Positions 4,026 to 50,017 of a DNA stretch of 64,000 nt are shown in pieces (within the stretch, counting starts at the first letter, position 1; each line of letters starts with the position of its first letter). The stretch lies in IMG/VR virus record IMGVR_UViG_3300011008_002687, positions 47,270 through 111,269 of that record; one strand, 5' to 3'. A program made the position numbers and the translations under genes. The DNA is from a virus (Duplodnaviria > Caudoviricetes). The notes beneath the pieces are model-generated. The model was not told the origin of the DNA. It did no database searches and was given only the letters and a program-made list of their open reading frames with translations.

Positions 4026-4034
4026 ATTATACCA
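4026..4034. other. Probable att core (left junction), which is also an extended -10 element TGGTATAAT on the minus strand
   Basis: ATTATACCA also at 50009..50017 after the integrase and its terminator. Confidence 0.65.
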
Positions 4035-4129
4035 CAATTTTTCCCGTTCTTAAAGTCTGCAATATGCTGAATTTTCGCCATTTGTTCAGTATTTCAGACG
4101 GCAGAAAACGATATAAAACGGTGGTATTT

Positions 4130-4147
4130 AGTAACAAATTAGAAACA
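4130..4147 (+). repeat. 18-bp direct repeat AGTAACAAATTAGAAACA, copy 1 (probable integrase arm-type site)
   Basis: Exact match at 49940..49957. Confidence 0.85.
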
Positions 4148-4164
4148 CGGTTCCGACATCCGGA

Positions 4165-5049
4165 TCAGACCTTCTTCAGGTACAGACTGGACGTGAAACC
4201 AGTGTACTTGGTGCCGTTGTAGGTCACCTGAATGTACAGCCACTTTCGGCCATTGGACTTGTCCACACTGTAGTAGCCGTAGTTCATGACCTTCAGACCA
4301 ACAGGCAGGACAACCATGGCCTTGTTTCCGGTACCGGCACCGTGCCGCATATAAACGGCAGCAGTGGTGACGTACTGTCCGGCCAGCTTCTTGTCAAAGC
4401 CCGTGGCATAGCCGGTTGCCCTGACTTCCTTCACCTTGCCGCTGGTGCTTCCGGATCCTGAACCGGATCCGCTGCCGGAACCAGTTCCGGAACCGCTGCT
4501 GGATCCACCAGCCTTGGCACCATCATCAAGTGCCATGACGGTATGACCGGAACTGACAAGCACGTCACCACGCTTCAGGTAGTCAGAAGATCCGGTGTAC
4601 TTCTTATCCGTCAGGATTTCATACTTGCCGGTCTTCTGATAGGCATTCTTCATGGTGCTGCACACCAGGGCATTTCCGGTATATTCCAGTTCCTTGACAC
4701 CGGCCAGGATAGCCAGCACGGTCTGGAAAGAACTGCAATCCGCTTCCGTGGCCACCTTGGACTTGATGTACTTGTCCACGTCATAGCCGTTTGCCTTCAG
4801 CTGATCATGCAGCGTGTTCCGCTGGGACTGGTCATAGCCTACCAGGTTGCTGTTGCACAGCTTTTCACATGCAGCGGCAGACTTTTCTGCCACAGCCGGA
4901 TCCTTCGGTCTAATGACAACCAGCCAGTCCTTGTTGTACCAGTAGGAAATCTTCACTTCAAGGCCGGTCTGGTCACCAGCCTTGGCACGTCCGTCCCATC
5001 CGGCATTGCCGTTTTCAGAAATGGACGCATGTCCGATTCTCACAGCCAT
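4165..5049 (-). CDS. Endolysin (NlpC/P60-CHAP-like catalytic domain, Gly/Ser linker, SH3b-like C-terminus)
   Basis: DCSS and GHT catalytic motifs, GSGSGSGS linker, last gene of late operon after holins. Confidence 0.8.
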   Translation of the reverse strand: MAVRIGHASISENGNAGWDGRAKAGDQTGLEVKISYWYNKDWLVVIRPKDPAVAEKSAAACEKLCNSNLVGYDQSQRNTLHDQLKANGYDVDKYIKSKVATEADCSSFQTVLAILAGVKELEYTGNALVCSTMKNAYQKTGKYEILTDKKYTGSSDYLKRGDVLVSSGHTVMALDDGAKAGGSSSGSGTGSGSGSGSGSGSTSGKVKEVRATGYATGFDKKLAGQYVTTAAVYMRHGAGTGNKAMVVLPVGLKVMNYGYYSVDKSNGRKWLYIQVTYNGTKYTGFTSSLYLKKV

Positions 5050-5059
5050 TGTGTTCACC

Positions 5060-5365
5060 TCACTTCTTTTCAAAATAAGCCATCAGCTTGTCAAAGCCGA
5101 ACATTGCAGCATAGGCCACCATGATGCCCACAATGACGAATGCAGCAACCAGATACCATGTCAGCATCATGCCATTCATCTGCCAGTAGGCAATGAACAC
5201 ACCCACCGTCAGAACAATGGACAGGCACAGCACAAAGATGTTGATCACCTTGGACGTACTAAGCCAGCTGAAGGATTTCTTCATCACTTCAGTGATGATG
5301 TTGACAAAAATGGTCAGAATTCCGACAATGATCAGAACCTGACTGATGATAGTTGAATAGTCCAT
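5060..5365 (-). CDS. Holin (3 predicted TM segments)
   Basis: Small hydrophobic protein directly upstream of endolysin. Confidence 0.7.
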   Translation of the reverse strand: MDYSTIISQVLIIVGILTIFVNIITEVMKKSFSWLSTSKVINIFVLCLSIVLTVGVFIAYWQMNGMMLTWYLVAAFVIVGIMVAYAAMFGFDKLMAYFEKK

Positions 5366-5383
5366 ATAGACGCACTTCCTTTC

Positions 5384-5707
5384 TTATCCCTTGGGTTCTT
5401 CTTCAGATGCAGAAAGATCAGGATCCGGCTGATCACCGGATCCCGTCTTCCTGATTTTGAACACGTTTTCAGCGCCTGCCTTGATGAAGTACCCAAAGAC
5501 ACAGGTGATCAGCACGTTGGTGGACAGTTCCATGAACGTCCCCAGATTGCTGTAATCACCGGAAACCATCATCACGATTGCAGAATAAAAGAAGGCTATG
5601 ACGTACAGCACAAAGCACGTGGCCACAACCTTCTTTGAAAATTCCCACAACCATGACAGCTTGGTCTGTTTCTTCTTTGAATGCTTATCCTTCATCCACA
5701 GCGCCAC
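5384..5707 (-). CDS. Small membrane protein of lysis cassette
   Basis: Two hydrophobic segments; position. Confidence 0.5.
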   Translation of the reverse strand: MALWMKDKHSKKKQTKLSWLWEFSKKVVATCFVLYVIAFFYSAIVMMVSGDYSNLGTFMELSTNVLITCVFGYFIKAGAENVFKIRKTGSGDQPDPDLSASEEEPKG

Positions 5708-6008
5708 TTGTTCCTTTCCCTTCCAAGAAGTTGATCCGTTTCCATGCAGATTTCAGGGATTCATCCAGACGGATGATCTTTTCAGTGTTTCCCTTCACGT
5801 CTTCTTTCAGGCTTTTCAGATCATTCTTGATTTCAGCAGTGTCACGGCCTATGCCTTCCAGCTTGACAATGACGGTGGTCAGGTCACTGGCTTCCCGTTT
5901 GTCATCAGAAGACTTGTTCCTTTTCAGATTGGCAATACCTGTGTAGATGCTGAAGGCAAGGGAAACAGCGGAAATCAGCAGTGCAATTTCAATAGTCATG
6001 TTGTTCAC
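5685..6008 (-). CDS. TM plus coiled-coil protein (holin-associated/XhlA-like)
   Basis: N-terminal TM followed by heptad coiled coil. Confidence 0.5.
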   Translation of the reverse strand: MNNMTIEIALLISAVSLAFSIYTGIANLKRNKSSDDKREASDLTTVIVKLEGIGRDTAEIKNDLKSLKEDVKGNTEKIIRLDESLKSAWKRINFLEGKGTSGAVDEG

Positions 6009-6089
6009 CTTTCCCTTCCGTCAGAAAGTGCCGTCAGACCTTATATAACGGTCATATACGGCACTTTCCAGCGTACTTGATATTTTCCC

Positions 6090-6224
6090 TTATCCTTCAT
6101 CAGGAACCTTGTCAGGATAGCCAGCATCAATGACAGCCTGTCTGACAGCAGGCTTCAGGGCAGCAGGCACCTGTTCAAAGGTCATCCGGTCATGAATGAT
6201 CAGGTTGGCATACACTTTTACCAT
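6090..6224 (-). CDS. Small phage protein, CD1375-like (44 aa; not in ORF track)
   Basis: MVKVYANLIIHDRMTFEQVPAALKPAVRQAV...; RBS AAGGAAGG. Confidence 0.65.
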   Translation of the reverse strand: MVKVYANLIIHDRMTFEQVPAALKPAVRQAVIDAGYPDKVPDEG

Positions 6225-6242
6225 GGTTCACACCTTCCTTTC

Positions 6243-6512
6243 TTACACCGTCAGAAGTCCGTAGACTTCCACCAGGCCTTCCTGGGTGTCCAGGATCTGA
6301 CTTTCAAGATCAGCCTGCTTGTCAGACTGCATCTTGATGTATTCATCCTTGTCATACTGCACCAGGTCATATTCATAACCGGTGAAGCCAGGTTCATCAT
6401 CCGTGCCTTCGGTGTTGATTGCCGTCACGTTGCTGGCAATCCAAACACTGAATTCATCCACCACAAGGGGTTCAGGCTGCACGGTTGCCTGTACACGTCC
6501 ATGATTGATCAT
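6243..6512 (-). CDS. Tail-fibre-associated small protein
   Basis: Likely start MINHG after AAGG RBS; overlaps 3' end of RT. Confidence 0.55.
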   Translation of the reverse strand: MINHGRVQATVQPEPLVVDEFSVWIASNVTAINTEGTDDEPGFTGYEYDLVQYDKDEYIKMQSDKQADLESQILDTQEGLVEVYGLLTV

Positions 6513-7662
6513 TTTCCTTACTTCCTTTCTTGATGTGTTTGAAATAGTATGCATCAGCGTATGGCTGAAGCGGATCCAGATACTTTTCAGTCAGACGGTG
6601 ACTGTCACAGTGGATCAGCCAGCCCTTATAGGAAGCAATGCTGCACCACTCTGAATAGTTCATTTCCTTGCCGGATTCCACCTTCTTCAGCAATCTGGTC
6701 ATCTTGTCCTTCATCTGATTGCAAGTGGACTTTCTAAGAAGGGTGTATTCCTTGAAGATCCGGTATCCAACAAAATCCACACCACGCTGATACGTGGGGA
6801 AGATCTGATAATTCCCTTTGATCCTCAAATTCAGTTCAGACTTCAGGTAGTCACCCATAGCTGCCAGGATCCTGTGAAGTTCTTCCTTGGTACTGGCAAA
6901 CACACAGATGTCATCCATGTATCTGTAGTAGTGCTTCACGTGAAGCACTTCCTTCATGAAGTGATCAAAGTCCGACAGGTAGAAGTTGCCGTCATATTGT
7001 GAAAAGTAGTTGCCTATGGGAATGCCAATACCATCAATGAACTGTTCATCCTTTCGCTGAACAATGGCAACGGTCTTTCCCAGTGACCTGTAAAACGCTA
7101 TGTTTTCATCCGTGGCCGGACAGGTGCTGATACTGTCAATGATTTCATCAATGACCTGAAGCAGTTCAGGATCCTTGTATTTCTTCCGGTACTTTGCCTT
7201 CAGGATGTCATGGTCAATGCTTGGATAGAACTTCTGACAGTCAATCTTGCAGCAGAACCGCAATTCATCAGGCACGGTGTCCACAGCGTTCCGAAGTTTC
7301 TTGAAGGCTGCATGTATTCCTTTATTTGGTATGGCTGAATAGGTATCATCCGTAAAGTGTGCCAACAGCTGTGGTTCAATCACCTGAATGATTGCCCATT
7401 GTGCTATCCTGTCAGGGAAGAACGGCAGCTTGTAGATTTCACGGACTTTGTTTCCCTCTTTCCGAAGGAACATTTCATAGCTGGAAGTGTGATAATCATG
7501 GTTGATCATCATTTCCTGAAGCAGCCCTAAGTAGTACCAGATATTCTTTTCAATTTCCCTTACTTCTTGATACCAGCCTTTTCCTTTCTTGGCATTCTTA
7601 TATGCCCGGTACAGATTGTCCATTGAAACAATCTTTTCAAATAAATAACCATAACGCTTCAC
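6472..7662 (-). CDS. DGR reverse transcriptase
   Basis: KxR-I, PFFPDRIAQ, KIDCQKFYPSI, GIPIGNYFSQ, RYMDD, DFVGY motifs; likely GTG start 7662 (VKRYGYLFEKI) after AAAGGA; adjacent to TR. Confidence 0.95.
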   Translation of the reverse strand: MKRYGYLFEKIVSMDNLYRAYKNAKKGKGWYQEVREIEKNIWYYLGLLQEMMINHDYHTSSYEMFLRKEGNKVREIYKLPFFPDRIAQWAIIQVIEPQLLAHFTDDTYSAIPNKGIHAAFKKLRNAVDTVPDELRFCCKIDCQKFYPSIDHDILKAKYRKKYKDPELLQVIDEIIDSISTCPATDENIAFYRSLGKTVAIVQRKDEQFIDGIGIPIGNYFSQYDGNFYLSDFDHFMKEVLHVKHYYRYMDDICVFASTKEELHRILAAMGDYLKSELNLRIKGNYQIFPTYQRGVDFVGYRIFKEYTLLRKSTCNQMKDKMTRLLKKVESGKEMNYSEWCSIASYKGWLIHCDSHRLTEKYLDPLQPYADAYYFKHIKKGSKENDQSWTCTGNRAA

Positions 7663-7872
7663 AGTGTTTCCTTTGTATGCACTAAGCCGAACCTTCGACA
7701 CGCACCGGAACCGGTGCATCCTACCAGTACAGCCTGTTTAGAATTTTGTCAGTGTTTTGCCAAGCGGCACGGTGACACGGTTGCAGTTCAAACTGGATGC
7801 AGAACACGCTGCATCACTTATTTATTGAAACACCCACCCGGTGTTGACCGGATGGGTGCTTTTTAGTGCATG

Positions 7873-8005
7873 TACTGACTGCCTGGAGATATTCCGATTA
7901 CGATTAGAAGACGAATTATTCAGATTCCGATTGAAGATCCTGGCTTTCAAGGCATTATTCCATTTACCACTGGATTTAGCTACATGCCAACTGGTGTTAC
8001 CATTT
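7873..8005 (-). repeat. DGR template repeat (TR)
   Basis: 133-bp ungapped match to 8153..8285; all 25 mismatches are at TR adenines (coding strand). Confidence 0.97.
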
Positions 8006-8113
8006 AGACTTTTTTGCTTTTTTCCAGTAGCCATGTGTGGTCTTCCACCTATCTTGCAAATAATCCGACTGTATAACCACGTCACCTATAGTTCTATGTT
8101 TCAGGCTATTGCC

Positions 8114-9949
8114 TTACGCAGCGTCAAGTTCCGCCTTCCTGCTGGGAATGAACACCGACCGCCCGGAGACATTCCGACCACGATAAGAAGACGAATAATG
8201 CAGATTCCGATAGAAGATCCCGGCCGCCAAGGCATTAGTCCACATACCACCGGATATAGCCACAAGCCAACCGGCGTTACCATTCCAGGTGTAATCACCA
8301 ACAGGCAGGGCACTGGTGCCGGAGAATTCCACACCAACAAAGATCCAGTCATAGTCTTCACTATAACCAAAAGCGCTGATGTAGTTGCCGCTGGTGTACG
8401 GAATACGGATGCCGGTGTCTTCATAGGGTGTAGCACCGGTGTCATCAGTAAAGCCGTGATCAGCCACATAAACAGTGCCGAACATGCCAGCCGCAAAACC
8501 GGAAGGATTCTGGATGTTGAAGCCGTCTTCCCACTTCCAGATGTTGCCCAACAGGTTTTCCTCACCACGATAGGACACAGCCTTCTGATGGTTGGCATTC
8601 TCTGCTTCACCGGAAGCGTTGCCAAGGTTCACCGTGGCACCGGTCAGTTCAGCCATGTTGGTGCTGCCGTCATCGGTCTTGTCCACAATGCCCTTGCCAA
8701 TGACGGTCTGACTGTTGAAGCTGCCGTACTCAATCAGCATCAGCAGCTGGGTACCGGCCAGCATGACAGCGTTCTGCTGTTCCCAGCCGTTGCCCATGTT
8801 GTGTGCCAGCTTTCTGGTGTTCGCCCTGGTCAGATTCTGTGTCAGGCCGGAAATGGGCTTGGCATTGGCAATGGAAGCCAGCTTGTCACCCGTGCTGACC
8901 GTGAAGTCAGCAACCTGATCATCATCCAAGATGTAGGCAGAAGCAGACACGTCATACAGGCAGCCTTCAAAGGCAGACTTGTAGATGAAGTCATCAACGG
9001 TTTTCCCCTCATTCATAGTGAACTGGGGATGGATCTTGAAGCCCTTCTTCGGCACGTCAGACACGTAGTATCTGATCTTCTTGGTCTTCCAGCCCTGGCT
9101 GACACCGTTGGCATCAAAGACTTCTTCAATGGACAGCGGCACAACCTTGTAGTAGAACTTCGGCTGTTCCACCATGACCTGAACCATGGTGCCGATAGGA
9201 TAGGTGACACCGCCTTTTTCCACGGCCTGAAGCAGTGCACCACCGGTGGTGTATGCAGTGTCACCCTGGTATGCCAGGACAACACCGTCAGCCGTCATGA
9301 TGCAGCGCTTTCTGCCGCCGAAGGCATTGATGCTGTCAAAACCAGCACCACCGGACTTGTTGACTGCACCGGCCAGACGGGTGAACTTCTTGTTGGCAAA
9401 GTCCACTTCAACACCATAGATGTCATTGTCAGAATATCCGACAAAACCCTTCAGGTCAGCAATTTCATCTTCCAGGGCATCAATGTCTTCAACCGTTGCA
9501 TAGGCACCGGAATAGACGCTGATGTCCACATCATCAGAATTGCCAACCGTGGTGTAGATCTGAATATAGGCAGAAGACACGGTGACACCTTTGTATGCAG
9601 GCATGTAGCAGAAACCGGAAGTTTCCACACACACGGCATACAGGATTTCACCAATGTCAGGATCCGTGGCATACAGGCCAAGGGAACGGAGATAGTACCC
9701 GGCAGCCAGTGCTTCATTGGTGAAGGCCGTTTCAACCTTCACAGAAGTGTGATTGGTGATGGTCACCCTGGTCACGCTGTTGGTCTGCTTGATCTGTTCC
9801 AGTGCAGTCAGACTTTCCAGCTGACTTTCTGCATAGGTCTTGGAAGACGTGCAGACCTTAGTGAAGACCAGGCTTGCCTGACCAGCAATGATCTTGGCAA
9901 CAAGTGCCTGACCTCTTGTGGTCAAATAAAGTTTGCTAAATTCAGCCAT
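8114..9949 (-). CDS. Tail fibre / receptor-binding protein, DGR target (C-terminal CLec/FGE-like domain)
   Basis: Tail-collar-like N-terminus; GNIWKWEDG and SGGxW...GRSV C-terminus containing VR; follows baseplate genes. Confidence 0.9.
   Translation of the reverse strand: MAEFSKLYLTTRGQALVAKIIAGQASLVFTKVCTSSKTYAESQLESLTALEQIKQTNSVTRVTITNHTSVKVETAFTNEALAAGYYLRSLGLYATDPDIGEILYAVCVETSGFCYMPAYKGVTVSSAYIQIYTTVGNSDDVDISVYSGAYATVEDIDALEDEIADLKGFVGYSDNDIYGVEVDFANKKFTRLAGAVNKSGGAGFDSINAFGGRKRCIMTADGVVLAYQGDTAYTTGGALLQAVEKGGVTYPIGTMVQVMVEQPKFYYKVVPLSIEEVFDANGVSQGWKTKKIRYYVSDVPKKGFKIHPQFTMNEGKTVDDFIYKSAFEGCLYDVSASAYILDDDQVADFTVSTGDKLASIANAKPISGLTQNLTRANTRKLAHNMGNGWEQQNAVMLAGTQLLMLIEYGSFNSQTVIGKGIVDKTDDGSTNMAELTGATVNLGNASGEAENANHQKAVSYRGEENLLGNIWKWEDGFNIQNPSGFAAGMFGTVYVADHGFTDDTGATPYEDTGIRIPYTSGNYISAFGYSEDYDWIFVGVEFSGTSALPVGDYTWNGNAGWLVAISGGMWTNALAAGIFYRNLHYSSSYRGRNVSGRSVFIPSRKAELDAA
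8153..8285 (-). repeat. DGR variable repeat (VR) at 3' end of tail-fibre gene
   Basis: A-to-N-only differences from TR. Confidence 0.97.
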
Positions 9950-10093
9950 AACATTTCTTCCTTTCTTGAAAACTATGATAGTGTATTATTTCAATGACCA
10001 TCATCAGGGACACCGTATGCCTTCCCATAACCACCTGCAAGCAGGGACACCGTATGGTCTGACATAACCACCTGGATCCGGATCACGGAAACC

Positions 10094-10723
10094 TTAGTGA
10101 TTATCAGATGTGATCTGATACATTTCTGTGCTGCTGATGACACCGGCAGACACACCGCCACTTGGCCGGAAGGTTTCACACCAGTCCTGTGTCAAGGTGA
10201 TCTGTGCATGGGTGGTCAGCCTTGCAGCAAAGGTATTGTTGCTGATTATGGTGCACATGATCTGATTGATGGAATACACCACGATGTTGCACGGCAGCAC
10301 TTCATTGAACAGTTCATTCAGTTCATCCACCTGGCCAAGGTTTTCCAGGTATGTTGTGATGGACAGCAGATATTCTTCAGTGAAACTGCCGCTGACAATG
10401 TAGTGATTGGCACCACACAGCACGTTCAGTTTCTGAAGAAATGTCTTCATGGTGTACGGCAGCAGATTCACCCAGTTCACCTGCACCCTGGATCTTCTGG
10501 ATTCCAGGTTGTCATGTTCATCTGGGATGATACCCATGATCTTTTCATATCTGCTGATGCCATATTCATCTGCCGTGCTGATGAAATGATTATACAGGCA
10601 GTGATCCACGGCATCCCATATCAGGATGAATTCCGGATTTTCTGCTTCCAGGGCAGCAACCTGTTCTTTGTATATCTGCAAATATGGGGGAAGGTATGAA
10701 ACCAGATCAACCTGTCTAACCAT
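10094..10723 (-). CDS. Baseplate/tail protein (XkdU/YmfQ-like)
   Basis: YLPPYL...F..TA...G..RYEK pattern; follows baseplate J. Confidence 0.7.
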   Translation of the reverse strand: MVRQVDLVSYLPPYLQIYKEQVAALEAENPEFILIWDAVDHCLYNHFISTADEYGISRYEKIMGIIPDEHDNLESRRSRVQVNWVNLLPYTMKTFLQKLNVLCGANHYIVSGSFTEEYLLSITTYLENLGQVDELNELFNEVLPCNIVVYSINQIMCTIISNNTFAARLTTHAQITLTQDWCETFRPSGGVSAGVISSTEMYQITSDNH

Positions 10724-11939
10724 TGATCACACCCCCAAACGTAGGAATCTGATACTTGGTCAAGGTGATGTTGTTTTCAGATCCGTTCAGCAGGACGCTT
10801 TCAATATCCAGCACACCTTCCACGGCCAGCACCCTGGATTCAATCTGGGAAACACGGACAACCAGATAGTCACTGTCTTCCCAGTCTTCACGCAAAGACT
10901 GAAGGTATTCATCAACAGTGCCTTCAATAGCATCCTTGCAAGCTGACCAGCTGTAGCCGGTATTAAACTGAAGACCTGTCAGCTTGACACTGATGGTCAC
11001 CGGTGAAGCAGATCTGACATTCACAACATGGCCGATTGGTGACAGGCCATAACCTTCACCAGTCATGGCATCCGGATCCAACGTGTTCTTCACAGAACTG
11101 ATCAGTGCAGGACTGGCTTCACCATAGTCATCACTGTCAATGATAGTGATCAGCACTGTGCCGCCAACAGTCAGCTTTCTGGATGCAGCTGCCGTATAAA
11201 CAGCAGTCAGCCATGTAGCCACTTCATCAGACAGGCCGCTGATCACCGATTCATACCAGGTATCCACATCTTCAGAAGGTACCAGGTCAGCAGGCTTGAT
11301 GTCACCATTCCAGACACGTTCAACTTTCACGGCACCAACACCGTTGATGCTTTTGACCTTATCAATATAGTCAGCACGGTTGCCGCCGAAGGCAAAGGTA
11401 CCAAAAGAATTGAAATACCGTGTCCGTAGGACTTCAGTGTCTTCTTCATCTTCACCAGGTATCAGCACTTCATCCAGTGTGGCCGTTTCCAGTCCCTGAA
11501 TGTATTCCATTGGAATCAGGTTGCCAAAATGCTGATTGCCGGTGATTCCAGCCGTTTCACACTGCACCTGATAGGTTCCGGCAGCGGCATTGATTGCAGA
11601 CAACACCACGTAGTTCAGACTGTCCAGGTTGAAACGCTGACCGATCAGTGCAGCGGATCCAACACTGGCCGGTGTGAATGTGGCCTTCAGCACCGCCTTG
11701 GTTGCCGGTTCAGGTTCTATGCCACGGTCTTTGCACAGAAGGATCAGGAAGTCACGTGATGCAGTGTCACCATAGCCGTCCTTGATCATCTGATCCAGTT
11801 CAATGTACAGCGTCTTCAGTTCAATGGCCGTAGGTGAATGTGTATCATAGATGACGGATCCTTCACGCTTGTCCAGGGAAGACGGCACCCGTGCCAGCAT
11901 TCTGTCCCTGATTTCTTCATAGGTCACATCTTCATACAT
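10716..11939 (-). CDS. Baseplate J/gp47 (XkdT-like)
   Basis: DKREGS..YD, G.DEE..E.LR.R, GGNRADY, PIGH motifs. Confidence 0.88.
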   Translation of the reverse strand: MYEDVTYEEIRDRMLARVPSSLDKREGSVIYDTHSPTAIELKTLYIELDQMIKDGYGDTASRDFLILLCKDRGIEPEPATKAVLKATFTPASVGSAALIGQRFNLDSLNYVVLSAINAAAGTYQVQCETAGITGNQHFGNLIPMEYIQGLETATLDEVLIPGEDEEDTEVLRTRYFNSFGTFAFGGNRADYIDKVKSINGVGAVKVERVWNGDIKPADLVPSEDVDTWYESVISGLSDEVATWLTAVYTAAASRKLTVGGTVLITIIDSDDYGEASPALISSVKNTLDPDAMTGEGYGLSPIGHVVNVRSASPVTISVKLTGLQFNTGYSWSACKDAIEGTVDEYLQSLREDWEDSDYLVVRVSQIESRVLAVEGVLDIESVLLNGSENNITLTKYQIPTFGGVING

Positions 11940-12343
11940 CAGAAATTCACCGTCCTTTCTTCTTTTATGTCACCAAAGACGGTGTGAACAGTGAATTTCA
12001 CGGCCACAACACCCTTCCTGGACAGATCAAATTCAAAGTCCGTCACGGACAGGATCCGTTCATCCCATGTCAACGCTTCAGTGATTCTTCTTTGCAGTTC
12101 AGGGCACACCCATGAAACAGGTTCCCCAAACAGATCCATCAGTTCAACACCGTAGTTCCATGAATACATTGGATACTTGTACCGCTCTGTGTTCAGTATC
12201 TTGAAGACAGCCTGTTTCATGGCATCAAGGCCGTCAACATATCCCCTGGTGGTGTTTCCTTCAAGATTCATCTTGTATGTTTTGCTTGGCTGTTCAGTGA
12301 TTTCAAAATCACTGGCTAAAAATCCGGAATTGGAAGGTATCAT
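11939..12343 (-). CDS. Baseplate wedge protein (XkdS/DUF2634-like)
   Basis: KILNTERYKY..YSWNYGVEL motif. Confidence 0.8.
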   Translation of the reverse strand: MIPSNSGFLASDFEITEQPSKTYKMNLEGNTTRGYVDGLDAMKQAVFKILNTERYKYPMYSWNYGVELMDLFGEPVSWVCPELQRRITEALTWDERILSVTDFEFDLSRKGVVAVKFTVHTVFGDIKEERTVNF

Positions 12344-41907: not shown

Positions 41908-42658
41908 TTCCAGTGCATTCCTTGAAGATCACGGGATCAAAGTTAGGCAAGGCAAGGATGATGTCCCTGTATTCCTGGCACAGTCCGTCCCACCAAAGCT
42001 GTGCACAGTCACTTTCATCCAGTACCTTCAGATAACCACCCGTTGTCTTATATTCCGGATACTGCTGCTTTTCTTCATCCGTCATGTCACAGGCATATAC
42101 CCATTCCACAACATTCTTCGGAATCTGGTTCAGCAGATGGTATGCCTTGCTGTTCCACCAGTCACGCAGCGTCCAGTCAGACGGTTTGTTGAACATGGTG
42201 ATCTTCGGTTCAATCGTCATGAAACATCCGTTATTGAAAGAAGATTTGTTCCAGTCCCCGGTGTTCCAGTCCCCGGTGTTGCAGTCCCCGGTGTTCCTGT
42301 TCCCGGTGTTCCTGTTCCCGGTGTTCCTGTTCCCGGTGTTCCTGTTCCCGGTGTTCCTGTTCCCGGTGTTGCAGCCTTTCTGGACTTCATCCCAGGACAG
42401 TTCACGGATGATCAGCAGCTTGTTGGTGCAGAACTTGATGTCATCATCAGTCTTCACGTCACCAATGGCTTCCACTTCGGCCACAACCGTCTGATCAGGA
42501 TCAAAGGTGTAGAAGTTGAACACGTCCGGCAGCCGTTCACAGAAACGCATTCCGGATTCACACGGGATCAGCTGCACATCTTCTTCAAAGGTTTCACCAA
42601 CCTTGTACTGCTTGCCACGGCAAGTCCAGTCTTTATTAAATGCCTTGAATCCTTTCAT
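41891..42658 (-). CDS. Phage protein with NTG(N/D)x pentapeptide repeats
   Basis: KGFK.F...CRG.QY..G N-terminus and 8 pentapeptides. Confidence 0.7.
   Translation of the reverse strand: MKGFKAFNKDWTCRGKQYKVGETFEEDVQLIPCESGMRFCERLPDVFNFYTFDPDQTVVAEVEAIGDVKTDDDIKFCTNKLLIIRELSWDEVQKGCNTGNRNTGNRNTGNRNTGNRNTGNRNTGDCNTGDWNTGDWNKSSFNNGCFMTIEPKITMFNKPSDWTLRDWWNSKAYHLLNQIPKNVVEWVYACDMTDEEKQQYPEYKTTGGYLKVLDESDCAQLWWDGLCQEYRDIILALPNFDPVIFKECTGIDINA
42251..42370. repeat. 8 x 15-bp coding tandem repeat (5 identical CCTGTTCCCGGTGTT)
   Basis: Read directly. Confidence 0.95.
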
Positions 42659-42661
42659 GGC

Positions 42662-44011
42662 TTATTTCTCCTTTACGTTTACTTCAGCAATTTTCATGGC
42701 CATAATGGGCACCACGCTGTTTCCGATCTTGGCCACCTGTTCCTTCACCGGATACCTGTGACCGTCAATGTCACGGTCAATCACATATTCCTTCGGGAAT
42801 CCCTGTGCCAGCTTCAGTTCTTCAGGTTTCAGCATCCGGAACCAGATGTCTGCAATCACGTAGTGATCACCTTTTCTGGTCATAATGGTGCTGACCATTC
42901 CAAACCTGTCCTTGGTGGTGATGGTTGCCAGCGGTTCATCCACCGTCTGACCGCATCCCTGTCCGTAGTATTTCAGCAGGAACACCGACACCAAACCGAA
43001 GTGACCAGGGGAAGTGGTGATGGTGTGAAGCGGTTCCGTGACTTCCTGACCGGTTCCGGTCTTGTAGAACTTGGTAATGAACACGGACACCAGACCATAC
43101 CTGTTGGAAGTGTCAATGGTCTGAATCGGTTCATTCACGGTCTGTCCACGGCTGTCACCTTCCTTGGTTTCACTGTGATACTGGATCAGGAATGGCATGG
43201 CAGTCTGATCTGGCAGGAAATATGGATCAGGATTTTCAATCACATACTTCCGGATCCCGTTTGCAATTCGCTTCAACGTGGCATCTGCCAGTGGTTTCTT
43301 CCGTTCAAAGATAGAAGATCCCAGGTCAGTGAAGTCCAGCTTTTCAGCGACAGGTACCCACGGAAGCAGGCCGCCTTCACCGTTCTTGCTGTGTGTAGGC
43401 ACCGGCCAGCGGATTTCCTTACCGTCAGATCTGAATACTGCATACCAGCGTTTCCTGGTAGTTGGTGCACCGAAGTCAGCAGCCACCAGTGTCCGGCATT
43501 CAAAGCTGAAACCAAGATCCTTCATGGAAGTGATAAAGCGCTGATATTCCAGACCTTTCTTTTCCGGAATCGGATGTCCTTTGTCATCCAGGTCACCCCA
43601 TTCCTGGATTTCTTCCACGTTTTCCATGAACAGAACGGTGGGAAGATGTCCGGTGATGGTCAGGATCTGTTTGCATAGCCTGTGCACTGCCCACGGAAGA
43701 ATCCGAAGACCGGCTTCACGTGGCTGGCCACCCTTGGCCTTGCTGTGGCTGGTGCAGTCAGGACTTGCCCACATCACATCCACCGTGTCATCCGGATCCA
43801 GATAGTTGGCCAGATCAACCTGGAAGATGTCTTCAGTCAGGTGCAGTGTTCTGGGATGGTTCACTGTGTGCATCCGGATAGCGGCAGGATCATGGTTGAT
43901 TGCTATGTTCACTTCAATGCCTGCCATCCGTAGGCCTTCAGAAGCACCGCCGCCACCGGCAAAGCCGTCTATTGATACATGCTTCATAATCAGCACCATC
44001 CTTTCAGCCAT
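42662..44011 (-). CDS. C5-cytosine DNA methyltransferase
   Basis: FAGGGG, SPDC, ENV, R.R, IGNSV. Confidence 0.9.
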   Translation of the reverse strand: MAERMVLIMKHVSIDGFAGGGGASEGLRMAGIEVNIAINHDPAAIRMHTVNHPRTLHLTEDIFQVDLANYLDPDDTVDVMWASPDCTSHSKAKGGQPREAGLRILPWAVHRLCKQILTITGHLPTVLFMENVEEIQEWGDLDDKGHPIPEKKGLEYQRFITSMKDLGFSFECRTLVAADFGAPTTRKRWYAVFRSDGKEIRWPVPTHSKNGEGGLLPWVPVAEKLDFTDLGSSIFERKKPLADATLKRIANGIRKYVIENPDPYFLPDQTAMPFLIQYHSETKEGDSRGQTVNEPIQTIDTSNRYGLVSVFITKFYKTGTGQEVTEPLHTITTSPGHFGLVSVFLLKYYGQGCGQTVDEPLATITTKDRFGMVSTIMTRKGDHYVIADIWFRMLKPEELKLAQGFPKEYVIDRDIDGHRYPVKEQVAKIGNSVVPIMAMKIAEVNVKEK

Positions 44012-44895
44012 TCAATGGTTTCATGGTAGTTATCTTCCACCATCCGAAGTTCAGCCTTTTCCTGCTTTTCTCTGTCACAGATCTGCTGATACAGGTCATC
44101 ATCACGATAGGCAGTCACTTCATCACGGATCAGCTGTGTCAGCATTTGCGGTTCCAGTGCATCCAGTTCCCATGATTCTTCACCATATTCCTGGATGTAC
44201 TTATCACACCTGCTGTCAGTGATCTTTGCAGGATTGGGTGGTGGGTTGTATGTATCAACCTGATCCATGGTTAAAGCCACACGCTTCACATATACGTCTG
44301 CACCAAACATGTTCAGCCTGTCCTGAATATCCCTGGTCATATCAATTCCGGAAGGATCATGATCACCAAGATGAATGATGATCCGCTGTTCCCGGTGTTG
44401 CTGACTGATGAAGCGCTGTGCAGCTGACCACATTTCAGACTGGGAAGTATAACCACGGCAGCTGAAGTGTGGTGTGTCTATAGGTCTGCAAGCCTGACTT
44501 ACAATGTCAATCAGGGCATCCTTTTCCACCCAGACTTCCACATAGTTTGGTTGACCTTTCCACTTATCCAGCAGGTAGGAATACCTTGCCGAAGCAATCA
44601 CGTCTTCAGGACGTTCCCAGTGACTGTTCCCACGGATATATCTGGTTCTGTCAGTGATGCTGTTCCAATCAATCAGACCGGCCAATCTGCCATCATTGAT
44701 CAGATTGCCAATGTTCTTGTATGACCGTTCATTGTTTGGAATGTAACCACGTGCAACCAGTTGATAATAGGCCTGACGCAATGTCAGTTCATATCCTTGA
44801 TTGCTGTATTCGCTGACAACACCATTGATCAGTTTGATCAGATCCAGGCTGGACTTTCTGAAGTTGATTTCCCTGTACTGGATCTTAGGCATCAA
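43990..44895 (-). CDS. Toprim-domain (TopoVI-A/JetD-like) protein
   Basis: TLRQAYYQ, VEVWVEKD, GDHDPSG, WELDAL. Confidence 0.7.
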   Translation of the reverse strand: MMPKIQYREINFRKSSLDLIKLINGVVSEYSNQGYELTLRQAYYQLVARGYIPNNERSYKNIGNLINDGRLAGLIDWNSITDRTRYIRGNSHWERPEDVIASARYSYLLDKWKGQPNYVEVWVEKDALIDIVSQACRPIDTPHFSCRGYTSQSEMWSAAQRFISQQHREQRIIIHLGDHDPSGIDMTRDIQDRLNMFGADVYVKRVALTMDQVDTYNPPPNPAKITDSRCDKYIQEYGEESWELDALEPQMLTQLIRDEVTAYRDDDLYQQICDREKQEKAELRMVEDNYHETIEWLKGWC

Positions 44896-45313
44896 CTTTC
44901 ACCCCCTCTATCTGTTCCAGCCGGTCACCATTGATCACGTATGTCCAACTGTGATCCGTGGTCTTGATGCCATACCCCCAAGGGAAAACACCCTGCTGAA
45001 GTCCCTTAGACACCGTGTCCTTGTCAATGCCCATGGCCTTGGCTGCCTGTTTTACTGTCAGCCTTCTGATGGATCCTGCCTTCTTGGTCACCGGCATCAC
45101 ACCGAAGGCCGGAAGTTGATCATCTTCCTTGGTGAAGTAGTCCGGATCCAGTCCAAGTGACACTGCCATATCACGCTGAACGTCTTCCGGGGGAATCTGC
45201 TTGCCAGACAGGTACTGACTGATTGATCCCTTGGACTTTCCAGTCAGACCACAAACCTGTGTCTGCTTCAGATTCAGATCCTGCATAGCCTTTTTCAGTC
45301 TTTCATTGAACAT
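44885..45313 (-). CDS. Double HTH protein (XRE plus excisionase-like)
   Basis: SISQYLSG; LTVKQAAKAMG...GLQQG.FPWG. Confidence 0.65.
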   Translation of the reverse strand: MFNERLKKAMQDLNLKQTQVCGLTGKSKGSISQYLSGKQIPPEDVQRDMAVSLGLDPDYFTKEDDQLPAFGVMPVTKKAGSIRRLTVKQAAKAMGIDKDTVSKGLQQGVFPWGYGIKTTDHSWTYVINGDRLEQIEGVKVDA

Positions 45314-45346
45314 TCCTTGATACCTTCCTTTCTTTGCGGTTGATTA

Positions 45347-45571
45347 TTATTCCACCTTGTTGGCAAAAAAAATGGCTTCAAATTCTTCAGAAGTCATGTT
45401 CAGAAGATCCCGGAGAATGCAGGCTTCAGACATGGTGAATTCTGTCTTGTTGTTCAGCTTGTTCAGGAATCCCTGATGTGTCAGGCCACACTTTTCAGCA
45501 ATGAATGCAATCTTGTAGCCAGAATCATCAATCTTCTTCCGAAGAAGTTCAGTGTTGGTCATTGTTGCCAC
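45347..45571 (-). CDS. Cro-like HTH regulator
   Basis: IAEKCGL...NKLN...EF...E. Confidence 0.7.
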   Translation of the reverse strand: MATMTNTELLRKKIDDSGYKIAFIAEKCGLTHQGFLNKLNNKTEFTMSEACILRDLLNMTSEEFEAIFFANKVE

Positions 45572-45580
45572 CTTCCTTTC

Positions 45581-45781
45581 TTAAATATCACAGTTGCCGT
45601 CTTCCGGAAACTGGTTCTTGTTGTACTGCTTCCTGATCTGGACAAAGACCTTGCCTTCAGTGTCAGTCCGTTCAGACATTATGCTAAACTTTCCAGTCAG
45701 GCTTTTCTTGTAGTCCTGATATTCAGCCTGATTGTCAAACTGGATCACCTGTTCAATCCAGGCCAGTAGAATCTTTTTCAT
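45581..45781 (-). CDS. Hypothetical protein
   Basis: In-operon ORF. Confidence 0.45.
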   Translation of the reverse strand: MKKILLAWIEQVIQFDNQAEYQDYKKSLTGKFSIMSERTDTEGKVFVQIRKQYNKNQFPEDGNCDI

Positions 45782-45953
45782 GCTTCACCTGCTTTCCATT
45801 ACTTATGTAAAACCCTATGGGATTCTGCTTGTCTTTCTCATAAATCAGATCCGTTCCATCCTTCAAATTGATTTCAATTTTCAGATGCCGGTATGGTAAC
45901 CGTTCAACCCATTGTTCAATTTTGTTCAGTATTTTCCATTCTTCCTGCTTCAC
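45753..45953 (-). CDS. Hypothetical protein
   Basis: In-operon ORF. Confidence 0.45.
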   Translation of the reverse strand: MKQEEWKILNKIEQWVERLPYRHLKIEINLKDGTDLIYEKDKQNPIGFYISNGKQVKHEKDSTGLD

Positions 45954-46394
45954 TTTACGCTTGCACCCCTAAAGATGACCACCATGGAAGGAAATGGTGC
46001 TGCATTCTTCTGACTTCCAAACTTCAACCTTCCCTTCACAAACCGGATTTCAGACCGGTGCATGATGTAATTGTGGAAGTACCTGGTGTCAGTTCTGGAA
46101 GGAATCAGCAGCACAACCACCGTGTTGTCCTTCCTGGTTTCATAGAATGCCTTGGCCACCCACTTTTCAATCTCTGAATACGGTGGATTGCAGAAAACGA
46201 CATCCCCCCCCCCAGTCAGCTTTCAGGCCGTCATCTTCTTTGCTGAAATACCTGTTGCATTTATGGTTTTCTGCCGTTGCACACGGATCCAGGGTGAAAT
46301 GAAATTCTGCATCCAGTTCATTGAAGAAGTCCTGTGGTGTTGACCATTCATCAGATTTCTTGCTGAACATCACTTCAGTGTTCATAAGCATCAC
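45950..46394 (-). pseudogene. Phage N6-adenine DNA methyltransferase, frameshifted at G10 tract (46204..46213)
   Basis: WSTPQ..F...F.LDPCA in first ORF; removing one G gives DWGGDVVFCNPPYS continuing into second ORF (LIPSRTDT...APFPS). Confidence 0.85.
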
Positions 46395-46648
46395 CCCTTT
46401 TCACGCCACCGGAAGAAGTCATCTGCACGGTACAGCATGACAAAATCACCTTCCAGATCATCCAGATCATAATACTGACCAACTTCACGATCCATGGCCA
46501 CGATCACCAGCATGTAGAAGTCCTGTTCATATTCCATGCAGGCATCCCTGATTTCATCCAGTGTCAGCCGTCCACGGCTTTTCTTGATGTTCAGGATCCA
46601 CTGGCCGGTCTTGTCATAGTCAGACCAGACTTCAATTCCTTTCTTCAT
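46391..46648 (-). CDS. Hypothetical protein
   Basis: In-operon ORF. Confidence 0.5.
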   Translation of the reverse strand: MKKGIEVWSDYDKTGQWILNIKKSRGRLTLDEIRDACMEYEQDFYMLVIVAMDREVGQYYDLDDLEGDFVMLYRADDFFRWREKG

Positions 46649-46917
46649 GCCTGTGCTTCCTCTAAGCTGCTGGACACGTCATCAATCTGACCTTTCAGAT
46701 CATCCAAGGTGTTCCATGCATCATCCATGTTGCTGACGGCATCTTCTGCCATGCTGTACTTTTCCGATCCCTGAAGGTTTTCAGGCATGTTGTCCAGATA
46801 TTCCTGTTCTTCATCCTTAATAGATTCAATGTCATCCAAGATGGATTCCATTTCAGACTGAACTTCGGCCAACCTTTTGATCACGTCATCAATGGCTTTT
46901 CTTCTGATCTTGTTCAT
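46645..46917 (-). CDS. Hypothetical acidic coiled-coil protein
   Basis: MNK.RRK...EQE..DNMPENLQ. Confidence 0.55.
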   Translation of the reverse strand: MNKIRRKAIDDVIKRLAEVQSEMESILDDIESIKDEEQEYLDNMPENLQGSEKYSMAEDAVSNMDDAWNTLDDLKGQIDDVSSSLEEAQA

Positions 46918-46988
46918 AGTTCACATTCCTTTCTTTATAGTGTGAAGGGTGGTCTGTTATCCACCCTTCACGGTGCCTGCATTGGTTA

Positions 46989-47468
46989 TCACTTAATAGT
47001 GTAGAGGGTGTCAACTGCTTCCTTCCGGATCAAAAACATCACGTTTTCAACAGTCTGATCTTCACTGTGCTTCACAATGTCCTGTGCAATTTCATAGATC
47101 CAGTGAACTGTAGGATCCTGCACACCAACAGTGTTCAGCATGAAGTTGTAGTCAGACACGCTGCCACAGGTGTACAGGTTGTGCTTGATGCACATGCAGC
47201 GGATGCTGTCCGGATCCCACTTGGTTTCTTCAATGATTTCCGGTTCCTGTTCAATGTAGATCCGGATGGTCTTGATCCCTTTGCCTTCCTGGATGTTCAG
47301 TTCCAGGGAAGTGTTCAGGTCACTGATCCAGCTGTTGTTTCCTTCGGCAGCGCTCATGAAGATAGGGTATCCTGCATTTTCACTGGCCTTATAGTCCTTT
47401 TCCCAGTCTGTGGGGAAAAGTCTTTCAGCTTCCTTCCAAGCTGCTTCACGGTTCCTGACTTTAATCAT
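46989..47468 (-). CDS. First gene of early lytic operon, hypothetical
   Basis: Follows leftward promoter; RBS AAAGGAATGTGA. Confidence 0.6.
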   Translation of the reverse strand: MIKVRNREAAWKEAERLFPTDWEKDYKASENAGYPIFMSAAEGNNSWISDLNTSLELNIQEGKGIKTIRIYIEQEPEIIEETKWDPDSIRCMCIKHNLYTCGSVSDYNFMLNTVGVQDPTVHWIYEIAQDIVKHSEDQTVENVMFLIRKEAVDTLYTIK

Positions 47469-47529
47469 GATTCACATTCCTTTCATTGGTTATCACTTGG
47501 ACTTTTTCTGGATGCTGCTACATCCGGAA

Positions 47530-47549
47530 GGTTGATTATTGTTCCACCT
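47530..47549. promoter_or_regulatory. Probable repressor operator GGTTGATTATTRTTCCACCT (second copy 45338..45357)
   Basis: 19/20 identity between copies; quasi-palindromic; just downstream of the early promoter. Confidence 0.6.
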
Positions 47550-47555
47550 GCTGCT

Positions 47556-47584
47556 ATCTTACCACCACGGGGAATGCCTGTCAA
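47556..47584 (-). promoter_or_regulatory. Early lytic promoter
   Basis: TTGACA-17 bp-TAAGAT with extended TG. Confidence 0.75.
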
Positions 47585-47612
47585 CTATTTTTTCAGGAAA
47601 TTGAAAAAATTA

Positions 47613-47641
47613 TTGAACATAGGGCAACCACGTGGTAAAAT
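47613..47641 (+). promoter_or_regulatory. Repressor promoter
   Basis: TTGAAC-17 bp-TAAAAT with extended TG. Confidence 0.65.
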
Positions 47642-47666
47642 GGTACCTATGAAAGGGGGTGATCAT

Positions 47667-48092
47667 ATGGGTGCCAGCAAAGATCCTTATCTTCAGACGC
47701 TTGGCCAAAACATCAAATACCTTCGGATTCAACATGGCTGGTCACAGGAAGAACTGGCTGAAAAATGTGGATATACTTCTGACACCAGAAAGTCAACCAT
47801 CAGCAAAATTGAAAACGGTCAATCAGACCTTCCCATTTCAAAACTGAAGATCTTTGCCAAGGTTCTTGGTGTGACATGTTCAGATCTTTGTGACAGCGTT
47901 CAGGACAAAGAACAAAAGATCATCTGTGATCTGATGGAAAAATGCTATGGCCAGGATGCATACAGAATGGTGCAGACGTTTCTGAAGCTGGATCAGGATG
48001 ACCGGCTGATCATCTATGGTGAAATGCTGGGAATGATGAAGGCTGACAAGTATGCTGTGAAAAAAGAATCATCAGAACAGAAGGCAATGTGA
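47667..48092 (+). CDS. CI-like XRE repressor
   Basis: IKYLR...WSQEELAEKCGY...STISKIENG; divergent from early operon; start reassigned after GGGGGTGA RBS. Confidence 0.85.
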   Translation: MGASKDPYLQTLGQNIKYLRIQHGWSQEELAEKCGYTSDTRKSTISKIENGQSDLPISKLKIFAKVLGVTCSDLCDSVQDKEQKIICDLMEKCYGQDAYRMVQTFLKLDQDDRLIIYGEMLGMMKADKYAVKKESSEQKAM

Positions 48093-48114
48093 TCTATGTT
48101 GACTTTTCACATGA

Positions 48115-48310
48115 CAGGTAACGGTTGGTAACGGGTAACGGTTGCTTTTTCTACTCTTATATTTTCACTTTTTTCAAAATTATTCTAAGTACACTTATAG
48201 TAATTTACTGCAAAAATGAAAACAGCCGTAACCAAGCGTTACCACCTGTAAAATCAACGCTTTTCAACCGTTACCTGAACCGTTACCAAGTAGTGATTCA
48301 ACCGTAACCA
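48115..48310. repeat. Second GGTAACGG/ACCGTTACC array flanking AT-rich tract
   Basis: Same motif and layout as 30495..30815. Confidence 0.75.
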
Positions 48311-48332
48311 ATGCCAAGAAAGGGGTGTTTTT

Positions 48333-48773
48333 ATGTTTGGGAAGAAGAAAAATGACAAGCCGGATGCAGTTGGCAATCATGTTTCCGGTCTTGATCTGCC
48401 TGAAGGCCAGCTTGTATCCGTTACCTTGACAGATGAACAGGTAATCATCAAGGCACCTGCCGCAAAAAAGGAATACAGCATCACGCTGGACAGGGTGACA
48501 GGGGTTTCACAGTATGATGATGTGGAAATTCAAAGCCACATGAAGTCATCATTGGCCAGGGGAATTGCCGGTGCTGTCGCCTTCGGTCTTGCCGGTGCTG
48601 TTATTGGCAGTCAGCCAAAGGAAAAGAAGAAACGTGTGATCCACATGTTCCTGGTGATTGACTATGTTGACGGTCAGATCATTATCACGTCTGATGTATG
48701 CTACAGGTTTTCAGATGTAGTGAAAAAGTTCAATGAACTGAAGCCGCAGACTGAACAAAAGATTTCACTGTAA
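48333..48773 (+). CDS. Lysogeny-module protein with glycine-rich hydrophobic segment
   Basis: RGIAGAVAFGLAGAVIG; between cI and int. Confidence 0.6.
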   Translation: MFGKKKNDKPDAVGNHVSGLDLPEGQLVSVTLTDEQVIIKAPAAKKEYSITLDRVTGVSQYDDVEIQSHMKSSLARGIAGAVAFGLAGAVIGSQPKEKKKRVIHMFLVIDYVDGQIIITSDVCYRFSDVVKKFNELKPQTEQKISL

Positions 48774-48856
48774 ACAAAAAAGAGGACATCCGGTGTAGCA
48801 GCACCGGATGTCCAAGTGATAACCAATTCAAGGAATGTGTTGAATTGGGCTATGCA
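48774..48856 (-). ncRNA. Putative ~80-nt antisense RNA upstream of integrase
   Basis: Promoter TTGCTA-17-TATGAT (48863..48891) and terminator GGACATCCGGTG-CTGCTA-CACCGGATGTCC-TCTTTTTT; complementary to early leader. Confidence 0.6.
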
Positions 48857-48898
48857 CCCTTAATCATAGCACACATTCCTTGAAATAGCAAGGAAGGA

Positions 48899-49921
48899 AT
48901 GTCTATGGGAAGAAGGAATCCAAACGGCTATGGCTGTGTGACAAAGCTGTCCGGCCATAGAACCAGACCATGGGTGGTGAAGGTGACCATCTATGATGAA
49001 GAAGGCAAGGCCAAGCAAACACCTGTGGCCTATGCAGCCACGGAACAGGAAGCCATGATCCTGCTGGCCAAGTACAACAATAATCCGTGGGAAGTGGACA
49101 GGGAAACCATCACCCTGGCTTCACTCTATCAGCGCTGGTCAAAGATCAAGCTGCCGAAGCTGGGGATCAGCACACAGCAGTCATTGAAGTCAGCCTTCAG
49201 GCACTGTTCCAAGTATTACGGCACCAAGTACCGGCAGATCAAGTCCTATCAGATGCAGGATACCATTGACAACTGTGGCAAGGGATATTCCACCCAGGGC
49301 GCAATCAAGGCACTGTGGGGACACCTTGACCGGTTTGCCTTTGAACTGGACATCATTGACAAGATGTACAGCCAGCTGACATCAGCTGCACCAATTCCTG
49401 AAACCACCAGGGAACCATTCACCCAGGAACAGATAGATGACCTGTGGAAGATCTCTGATCAGCCATATGTGAACACCGTGCTGATTTATCTGTACACCGG
49501 CTTCAGACTGACTGAACTTCTAACCATGAAGGCTGAACAGGTGAACATGGATGAACTGTACTTCCAAGGTGGGATCAAGACGGCATCAGGCAAAGGCAGA
49601 ATTGTTCCCATCCATCACAGGATCCAACCATTTGTGAAGGATCTGGTCAGCACCGGCAGCACGTACCTGTTCACCTATGACGGGAAGAAGATCAGCAATG
49701 CAAAATACTATGAACTGTGGAACACCGTGATGCAGGCCATTGGTGCAGACAAGACACCGCATGAAGCCAGACACACATTTGAAACCAGGCTGGATAATGC
49801 CAACGGCAACCGGAAGTGTATTGACATGCTGATGGGACATAAGTCAAAAGACGTGGGAAACAGGGTGTATAATCACAAAACCGTGAACCAGCTGAAGGAA
49901 ACCATTGAACTGTTGCAGTAA
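48899..49921 (+). CDS. int: Tyrosine integrase (inner prophage)
   Basis: YTGFR..E, K, HEARHT, MGH, VYNH. Confidence 0.95.
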   Translation: MSMGRRNPNGYGCVTKLSGHRTRPWVVKVTIYDEEGKAKQTPVAYAATEQEAMILLAKYNNNPWEVDRETITLASLYQRWSKIKLPKLGISTQQSLKSAFRHCSKYYGTKYRQIKSYQMQDTIDNCGKGYSTQGAIKALWGHLDRFAFELDIIDKMYSQLTSAAPIPETTREPFTQEQIDDLWKISDQPYVNTVLIYLYTGFRLTELLTMKAEQVNMDELYFQGGIKTASGKGRIVPIHHRIQPFVKDLVSTGSTYLFTYDGKKISNAKYYELWNTVMQAIGADKTPHEARHTFETRLDNANGNRKCIDMLMGHKSKDVGNRVYNHKTVNQLKETIELLQ

Positions 49922-49939
49922 TGATTTTCCCATTGAACC

Positions 49940-49957
49940 AGTAACAAATTAGAAACA
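49940..49957 (+). repeat. 18-bp direct repeat, copy 2
   Basis: Exact match to 4130..4147. Confidence 0.85.
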
Positions 49958-49962
49958 AAAAT

Positions 49963-50000
49963 AAGCGGAAGTCATTGAAAATCAAGGACTTCCGCTTTTT
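49963..50000 (+). terminator. Terminator-like hairpin after int
   Basis: AAGCGGAAGTC...GACTTCCGCTT-TTT. Confidence 0.65.
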
Positions 50001-50008
50001 GAAGGCAC

Positions 50009-50017
50009 ATTATACCA
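50009..50017. other. Probable att core (right junction)
   Basis: ATTATACCA; CTC/CGA-containing sequence resumes right after. Confidence 0.65.

Follow-up and report, generated by a model that had tools for sequence, protein, structure and literature searches.

The stretch of DNA analyzed here (64,000 nucleotides, hereafter the window) is the final 64 kb of the 111,269-bp provirus record IMGVR_UViG_3300011008_002687 of IMG/VR, which is metagenome-derived, and it contains one temperate phage surrounded by the genes of another. The report rests on sequence analysis, and the roles assigned below to promoters, terminators and arm sites are predicted ones. The inner phage, a temperate siphophage of 45,974 bp between its two cores (4035..50008, minus strand), possesses genes for an endolysin, a reverse transcriptase (RT) of a diversity-generating retroelement, a tape measure protein, an SPP1-type portal, a MuF protein, the small and large terminase subunits, a D5-type primase, a polB-like protein, a helix-turn-helix (HTH) repressor and a tyrosine integrase of 340 aa (48899..49921, plus strand; PF00589, E 2.8e-18). 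The catalytic pattern R..HxxR..H..Y, as required of a lambda-type integrase, was read by eye for this protein in the alignment as FRLTE, HEARHT, GHK and VYNH. On the 50018 side of the insert, the minus strand encodes the CI and Cro-like regulators of the outer phage, RecT, a PDDEXK nuclease, a replisome organiser, a DnaC-like loader, RusA, DUF1351 and a 184-aa protein. Beyond the insert, on the 4025 side, the minus strand continues with a DUF488-like gene (171 aa, 3473-3988), a Dam-like/GNAT fusion, a ParB_N protein and the small and large terminases, and the array extends through the 47 kb of the record preceding the window with a Mu-type portal, a tail sheath, a 1,559-aa tape measure protein and an endolysin. 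The DUF488-like gene, the first after the split promoter described below, thus heads ~50 kb of minus-strand outer genes for DNA modification, terminase, Mu-type portal, sheath, tape measure and endolysin. Another tyrosine integrase lies at the record end on the outer side (62945-64000). Based on the minus-strand gene array and this closing integrase, the outer element was considered a myovirus-like prophage of ~65 kb, a size matching that of its uninterrupted relatives (contigs of 60-67 kb).

The original prediction held that one prophage was inserted in another, and comparative analysis confirmed that a 46-kb temperate phage is nested in a second prophage of ~65 kb, that is, a complete siphophage within a myovirus-like prophage. 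Pfam maps placed the genes of a single phage on both sides of the insert, and uninterrupted relatives were collinear with the joined flanks. The GC skew shifted at both insert junctions. A tandem arrangement of two prophages was considered and rejected. ARAGORN detected no tRNA in the window, and the GenBank phage collection contained no close relative of the flanks, the sole match being 107 bp to Faecalibacterium phage FP_Brigit.

The core ATTATACCA was found in the same orientation at both ends of the inner prophage. The left junction (attL, 4026..4034) reads TGGTATAAT on the minus strand and keeps a -10 element beside the presumed late operon of the outer phage, while the right junction (attR, 50009..50017) reads TATGGTATAAT on the minus strand together with 50018-50019. 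A third copy is located at 25129, within the inner MuF gene. Three copies compare with 0.15 expected, and none of 100 shuffles reached three; the 9-mer count by itself is nevertheless weak evidence, and it is homology that makes the junction real in our reading. The homology of the right flank to outer relatives stops exactly at 50009 and that of the left flank at 4034. When the flanks were joined at the 9-mer, they gave an unbroken, collinear alignment to eight uninterrupted relatives, and the closest relative, a metagenome-assembled genome of Lachnospiraceae (L238), gave a single 1,529-bp alignment with 83% identity. Its DUF488-like protein is 92% identical to that of the window, and its empty site reads TGTGGTATAAT. 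Uninterrupted relatives of the outer phage, for which the original prediction had proposed to look, were found, namely L238 and the eight others. The phage attachment site (attP) was found on an independent viral contig, L169, which encodes an integrase 100% identical in protein to the inner one. Window 46908-50019 aligns with positions 504-3621 of L169 at 95% and window 4026-6384 with positions 3611-5958 at 81%; these alignments share only the core, which identifies L169 as carrying the joined attP. Both the attP and the empty target sites (attB) thus come from relatives and not from an identical pair.

A longer exact direct repeat, the 18-mer AGTAACAAATTAGAAACA, also lies close to both ends of the inner phage, at 49940..49957 (P arm, plus strand, starting 69 nt before the core) and 4130..4147 (P' arm, plus strand, starting 104 nt after the core start), and it could be taken as the true attachment site, with the 9-mer coincidental. 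Against this, the attP of the free-phage contig L169 contains both 18-mers, as do about ten further attP-type contigs; the outer homology ends at 50009 and 4034, leaving out 49958-50008 and 4035-4129; and the intergenic length would be 470 bp, compared with 297 bp under the 9-bp model and 291 bp in a relative. We rejected the 18-bp repeat as the attachment site, since these observations refute it and leave it practically no probability. The original prediction, which had named an 18-bp junction as the result that would overturn the 9-mer, came through this comparison. Three lines, namely the attP of L169, the rebuilt empty site and the position of the 18-mers inside attP, place the crossover in the 9-bp core instead of the 18-bp repeat. 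Could the nesting instead be a chimera that assembly made from two phages? In favour of this, the provirus record derives from a metagenome, and its exact junctions were not found in other records. However, an assembler does not fuse contigs over 9 bp, the core orientation is the same at both junctions, removal of the insert restores the conserved site base for base, and the arrangement follows the attP geometry of the integrase family. Because joining over 9 bp is implausible and removal of the insert restores the conserved site, a chimera was judged very unlikely and was rejected.

The sequence struck by the inner phage resembles a promoter. The joined flanks read, on the minus strand, TGTACT, 17 nt and TATAAT (with TGG immediately before it), followed by 37 nt to the ATG at 3988. 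The conserved upstream half, TTTCAGTGTACTTAG, is located at 50029..50043 (minus strand), with the -35-like TGTACT at 50032-50037. We found that 89 of 94 outer relatives keep TTTCAGTGTACTTAG, followed by TATAAT 16-17 nt past TGTACT and ~35 nt upstream of the DUF488-like gene, and this footprint is kept where neighbouring proteins are only 55-70% identical. The promoter-like element heads the entire modification, packaging, head, tail and lysis array, and its position suggests that it may be the late promoter of the outer phage. The exact 11-mer TATGGTATAAT is the sole perfect TATGRTATAAT in the 111-kb record, and it is occupied. These results support the view that the probable target was the extended -10 (TGnTATAAT) of a conserved promoter-like element, and the earlier claim of a crossover in such a -10 agrees with the conservation of that element among the relatives. 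The 9-mer, the joined minus-strand promoter, the DUF488-like gene and the 13-mer ATACCATATTACC were likewise all located where they had been described; the 13-mer occurs at 50012 and at 50161-50173, its second copy belonging to an upstream element that is conserved in the outer intergenic region and reads GGTAATATGGTA (minus strand).

One part of the original prediction fared less well. The 184-aa protein encoded directly upstream of the promoter (50269..50823, minus strand) had been called the late regulator. Its sigma-70 region 4 and HTH hits are weak and below the curated cut-offs, it belongs to a PHROG without known function, and neither PHROGs nor NCBIfam confirmed it as a late regulator. 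From its position, the protein might still be the regulator or activator of the promoter. In the same intergenic region (50060-50200), a second conserved promoter-like site was observed (TTTACG, 17 nt, TGgTAATAT, minus strand), with the 13-mer within it, together with a conserved leader of ~130 nt that carries a GC hairpin, precedes the split promoter and has no Rfam match. In the inner phage, a 13/15 match to the conserved upstream element of the outer promoter, CTAAGTACACTTATA, was observed at 48185-48199, between the repressor-like gene and the gene preceding the integrase; it is also present in L169 and may be due to chance.

To survey the insertion sites of homologous integrases, ~120 relatives with 45-81% identity, besides the 100% match on L169, were drawn from viral contigs and from genomes of Roseburia, Anaerostipes, Coprococcus, Hominiventricola, Acetatifactor, Lachnospira and other Clostridia. 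The 18-mer arm motif was present in 98 of the 120 loci with at most three mismatches, ~20 nt past the integrase stop where the sequences were read. A core followed the arm in 82 loci, and in 75 of these it was located 69 nt from the arm start. Among contigs of the attP form, the second 18-mer started 104 nt after the core start in nine of 11. Pfam detected no arm-binding domain in the inner integrase, and the 18-mers are regarded as putative arm-type sites. At the family level, then, the layout was shown to be fixed, in the order of integrase stop, 18-bp arm, covarying hairpin (a predicted terminator), core ATTATAYCATA and second arm.

The hairpin of the window (49963-49997) and its T-run (49950-49962) together form a predicted intrinsic terminator on the minus strand (49950..49997), 11 nt downstream of the -10. 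The hairpin folds at about -19 to -21 kcal/mol (z -4.6). A hairpin is located between arm site and core in all relatives, where its sequence drifts and its pairing is kept; compensatory changes were found at 14 of 15 pairs among 30 sequences, and a T-run then follows on the strand read from the -10. A T-run on the integrase (plus) strand, by reading, exists in the window and not in the main lineages. Because the integrase-strand T-run is not conserved, the conserved orientation is the one that would stop transcripts from the regenerated promoter running antisense into the integrase gene. The probable role of the terminator is therefore to shield the prophage from its captured promoter.

The targets of the family were diverse. 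From 69 integrated attR junctions we obtained 63 distinct flanks, which is an upper bound because some of the counted junctions could be the attP of divergent phages whose P' arm was not recognised. One lineage with an identical P arm had, by reading, 17 different flanks. Information content was high only across the 11-nt core ATTATAYCATA, the reverse complement of which is TATGRTATAAT, and TRTGnTATAAT is the consensus of the Gram-positive extended -10. A -35-like hexamer matching at least 4 of 6 positions at 16-18 nt spacing occurred in 33% of the flanks, compared with 4-20% at 24 control offsets, and two flanks had a perfect TTGACA at 17 nt. The attL junctions were retrieved from genomes by a core-gap-arm DNA pattern, which yielded 15 usable junctions (an endolysin-based retrieval of attL loci from genomes returned nothing), and at least 11 of the 15 had a co-oriented open reading frame with a ribosome-binding site 24-135 nt downstream. 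Two rebuilt attB sites illustrate this pattern: in Clostridium sp. OF03-18AA, TTGAAG, 17 nt and TATAAT precede a membrane-protein gene, and in Anaerostipes hadrus TATGGTATAAT lies 59 nt before a glycogen-synthase-like gene. The exact TATGRTATAAT occurred 16 and 38 times in two host genomes, versus two to three times for the reversed control. Given the shared core, the distinct flanks and the co-oriented genes downstream, the family appears to target the Gram-positive extended -10 (TRTGnTATAAT). The core logo, the -35 enrichment and the genes downstream of attL all point to promoters as targets, and the proposal that the integrase uses TGnTATAAT as attB, made from a single insertion, is consistent with this survey of homologues.

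Some flanks recurred or carried genes of mobile elements. In several different genomes (L225, L227 and L233, and also L236 and L237), members of the family were located at what seems to be the same orthologous leader, sharing CGAACGGCGAAATTAGTGAGTG downstream of the core; some promoters may be preferred hot spots, and the leader may be a regulatory RNA. Just outside the integrase-side junctions of three related prophages, large serine recombinases (L096 and L132) and a GH25/CW_7/LysM endolysin (L148) were observed. These three flanks hint at more insertions into or beside other mobile elements, and such genes are as expected if resident elements were struck at random.

Based on these results, we consider it highly probable that the best overall explanation is a nested phage that crossed over within 9 bp of an extended -10, belongs to a multi-site family and struck its resident incidentally. 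The inner phage integrated through its tyrosine integrase, by recombination of the attP core ATTATACCA with the identical 9 bp of the outer TATGGTATAAT. This would have regenerated the -10 TGGTATAAT on both sides. At attR, the resident promoter would be whole through its -10, and its transcripts would run into the phage terminator ~11 nt past it. At attL, the downstream genes would retain TGnTATAAT and be deprived of their native -35 and activator site. The insertion would leave the candidate regulator gene, along with the conserved upstream element, 46 kb away from the genes they serve. Because attR reads into a terminator and attL has lost the -35, the outer late genes would be separated from the conserved upstream element until excision, and excision of the inner phage would precisely restore the site. 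Since the element is displaced by 46 kb and the 111-kb composite would exceed the outer capsid, the outer phage should not finish its lytic cycle before the inner one has left.

Several observations weigh against this explanation. The exact attP, empty attB and attL of this particular pair were absent from viral contigs in exact-pattern scans, and scans of metagenome contigs found neither the empty attB nor the right flank. The count of distinct flanks may be inflated as stated above, a clear downstream gene is missing from four of the 15 attL flanks, and the 184-aa protein has only the sub-threshold hits already described. Moreover, a hybrid promoter-like site was created at attL (4026..4053, minus strand; TTAAGA, 16 nt, TGgTATAAT), whose upstream half comes from the inner phage and which by chance reaches 10/12 as a sigma-70-type promoter; the outer late genes may therefore still be expressed.

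This hybrid site leads to the question of whether the insertion was nearly neutral for the outer phage, its late genes being kept expressible by the attL promoter or by read-through from the inner late operon. Extended -10 promoters can function without a -35. That property, the TG extension of the hybrid site with its score of 10/12, and the lack of any minus-strand terminator found from the inner endolysin stop (4165) to the core all count in favour of neutrality. On the other hand, 89 of 94 relatives preserve a 15-mer at the -35 position, which implies that the promoter needs this element, and DNA-modification and lysis genes expressed constitutively would probably do harm. The P' arm was also considered as the source of a conserved -35, which was rejected; its -35-like hexamer exists in the window only and, by reading, is not conserved in other family members. 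A nearly neutral insertion was thus regarded as rather improbable. Slightly less credit was given to the opposite scenario, in which the inner phage evolved to serve as a regulatory switch by active lysogeny of one phage in another, with its excision timed to license the outer late operon only after its departure. The insertion parts the late genes from the conserved upstream element exactly, the terminator of the P arm would halt outer late transcripts, precise excision would restore a perfect promoter, and the ~111 kb composite is above the packaging size of a 65-kb phage. Yet none of ~95 outer relatives was interrupted at this promoter, the integrase family occupies more than 60 unrelated sites, the outer genome offers a single perfect site where a chance insertion would fall, and no co-occurrence or co-evolution of both phages was seen. 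Given a promiscuous family, an outer lineage otherwise free of insertions at this site and only one perfect site in the outer genome, a selected switch is doubtful. As 1 of about 95 outer phages, the occupied one looks like a sporadic case, and the nested arrangement is more likely an incidental hit with a regulatory side effect than an evolved phage-on-phage switch. In a broader form, we hypothesized that a widespread clade of phage integrases in gut Clostridia uses the sigma-A extended -10 as a universal, portable and terminator-insulated attB, so that a newcomer controls the late genes of a rival prophage until it leaves; this idea is tentative, though less improbable than either of the two scenarios just discussed.

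Several components of the incidental-hit explanation have known counterparts. Prophages within prophages were documented in Shiga toxin-producing and enteropathogenic Escherichia coli (Nakamura et al. 2021, PMC8112680), where the attB of a temperate phage likewise lies inside a resident prophage and nested clusters result. In the main E. coli case, however, the attB (21 bp) is seemingly chromosome-derived and lies in effector-gene loci (PMC8112680), whereas here it is the outer phage's own -10, the host is of the Lachnospiraceae-type Clostridia, and the integrase is multi-site. Promoter-directed insertion in Gram-positive bacteria was described for the TnGBS, ISLre2 and ISKra4 elements, which use Mutator-like DDE transposases (Guerillot et al. 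2014, PMC3942029). TnGBS-type elements also target the sigma-A promoters of many genes in fixed orientation, but their insertion point, 15-17 bp ahead of the -35, spares the promoter, and they recognise no conserved target motif (PMC3942029). The present enzyme, in contrast, is a tyrosine recombinase whose crossover falls within the -10 itself, an 11-nt motif.

Multi-site tyrosine integrases are familiar from Tn916-type elements. The integrase of the Stx phage Phi24B is also multi-site (PMC7581858). Like the present integrase, both are tyrosine recombinases that accept many targets and combine a core with arm-type sites, which are putative in the present family, but their targets are not known to be promoter elements. 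To our knowledge, no insulating P-arm terminator has been described for either type. Prophage phi10403S in comK is an example of active lysogeny. The skin element in sigK represents the regulatory-switch type of prophage as well (PMC5025042). These two elements similarly split a functional unit that precise excision restores; they differ in occupying a host coding gene at a single dedicated site, whereas in the present case the unit is the promoter of another phage, the integrase is promiscuous, and regulated excision is conjectural. A literature search found no tyrosine integrase with a -10 element as its core, which is weak evidence because most subscription journals were outside its coverage. 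What appears to be new is therefore an integrase family with a -10 core and an attP layout shared by about 100 relatives, while nested prophages, promoter-directed insertion and multi-site integrases were already known.

Other features of the two phages were also observed. Directly upstream of the inner RT gene (6472-7719, minus strand), an Rfam RT-17 RNA was located at 7673-7774 (50.9 bits). The inner MuF head protein (24492-26279) carries a C-terminal glutamine-deamidase domain (papain-fold toxin 1, PF15644) and so represents a MuF-toxin fusion. A divergent family-B DNA-polymerase-like protein with a weak Pfam match adjoins the D5-type primase-helicase (34218-36182 and 31778-33682). An inner-phage open reading frame at 42217-42396 contains ~10 tandem copies of the 15-nt unit TGTTCCNGTYCCCGG, which suggests a five-residue peptide repeat. 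At the far end of the outer prophage (record 1644-4033, L252), a ParB_N/HTH_ParB protein is encoded beside a protein with a phosphoadenosine phosphosulfate (PAPS)-reductase domain, a pairing characteristic of cargo for DNA modification or defence.

In the usual description, a phage integrase selects a single site that is long and specific, for example a tRNA gene. If the family indeed recognises an 11-nt core that is the -10 consensus, this would explain how its members lysogenize many genera and why prophages are located at different genes in each strain. A prophage of this kind may also rewire the expression of the gene it precedes, including the late operon of another phage. The record further warns annotators that a 111-kb "complete provirus" can be two phages. 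Finally, a natural recombinase with a short target that is ubiquitous in Gram-positive bacteria could become a genetic tool for gut Firmicutes that are hard to engineer.

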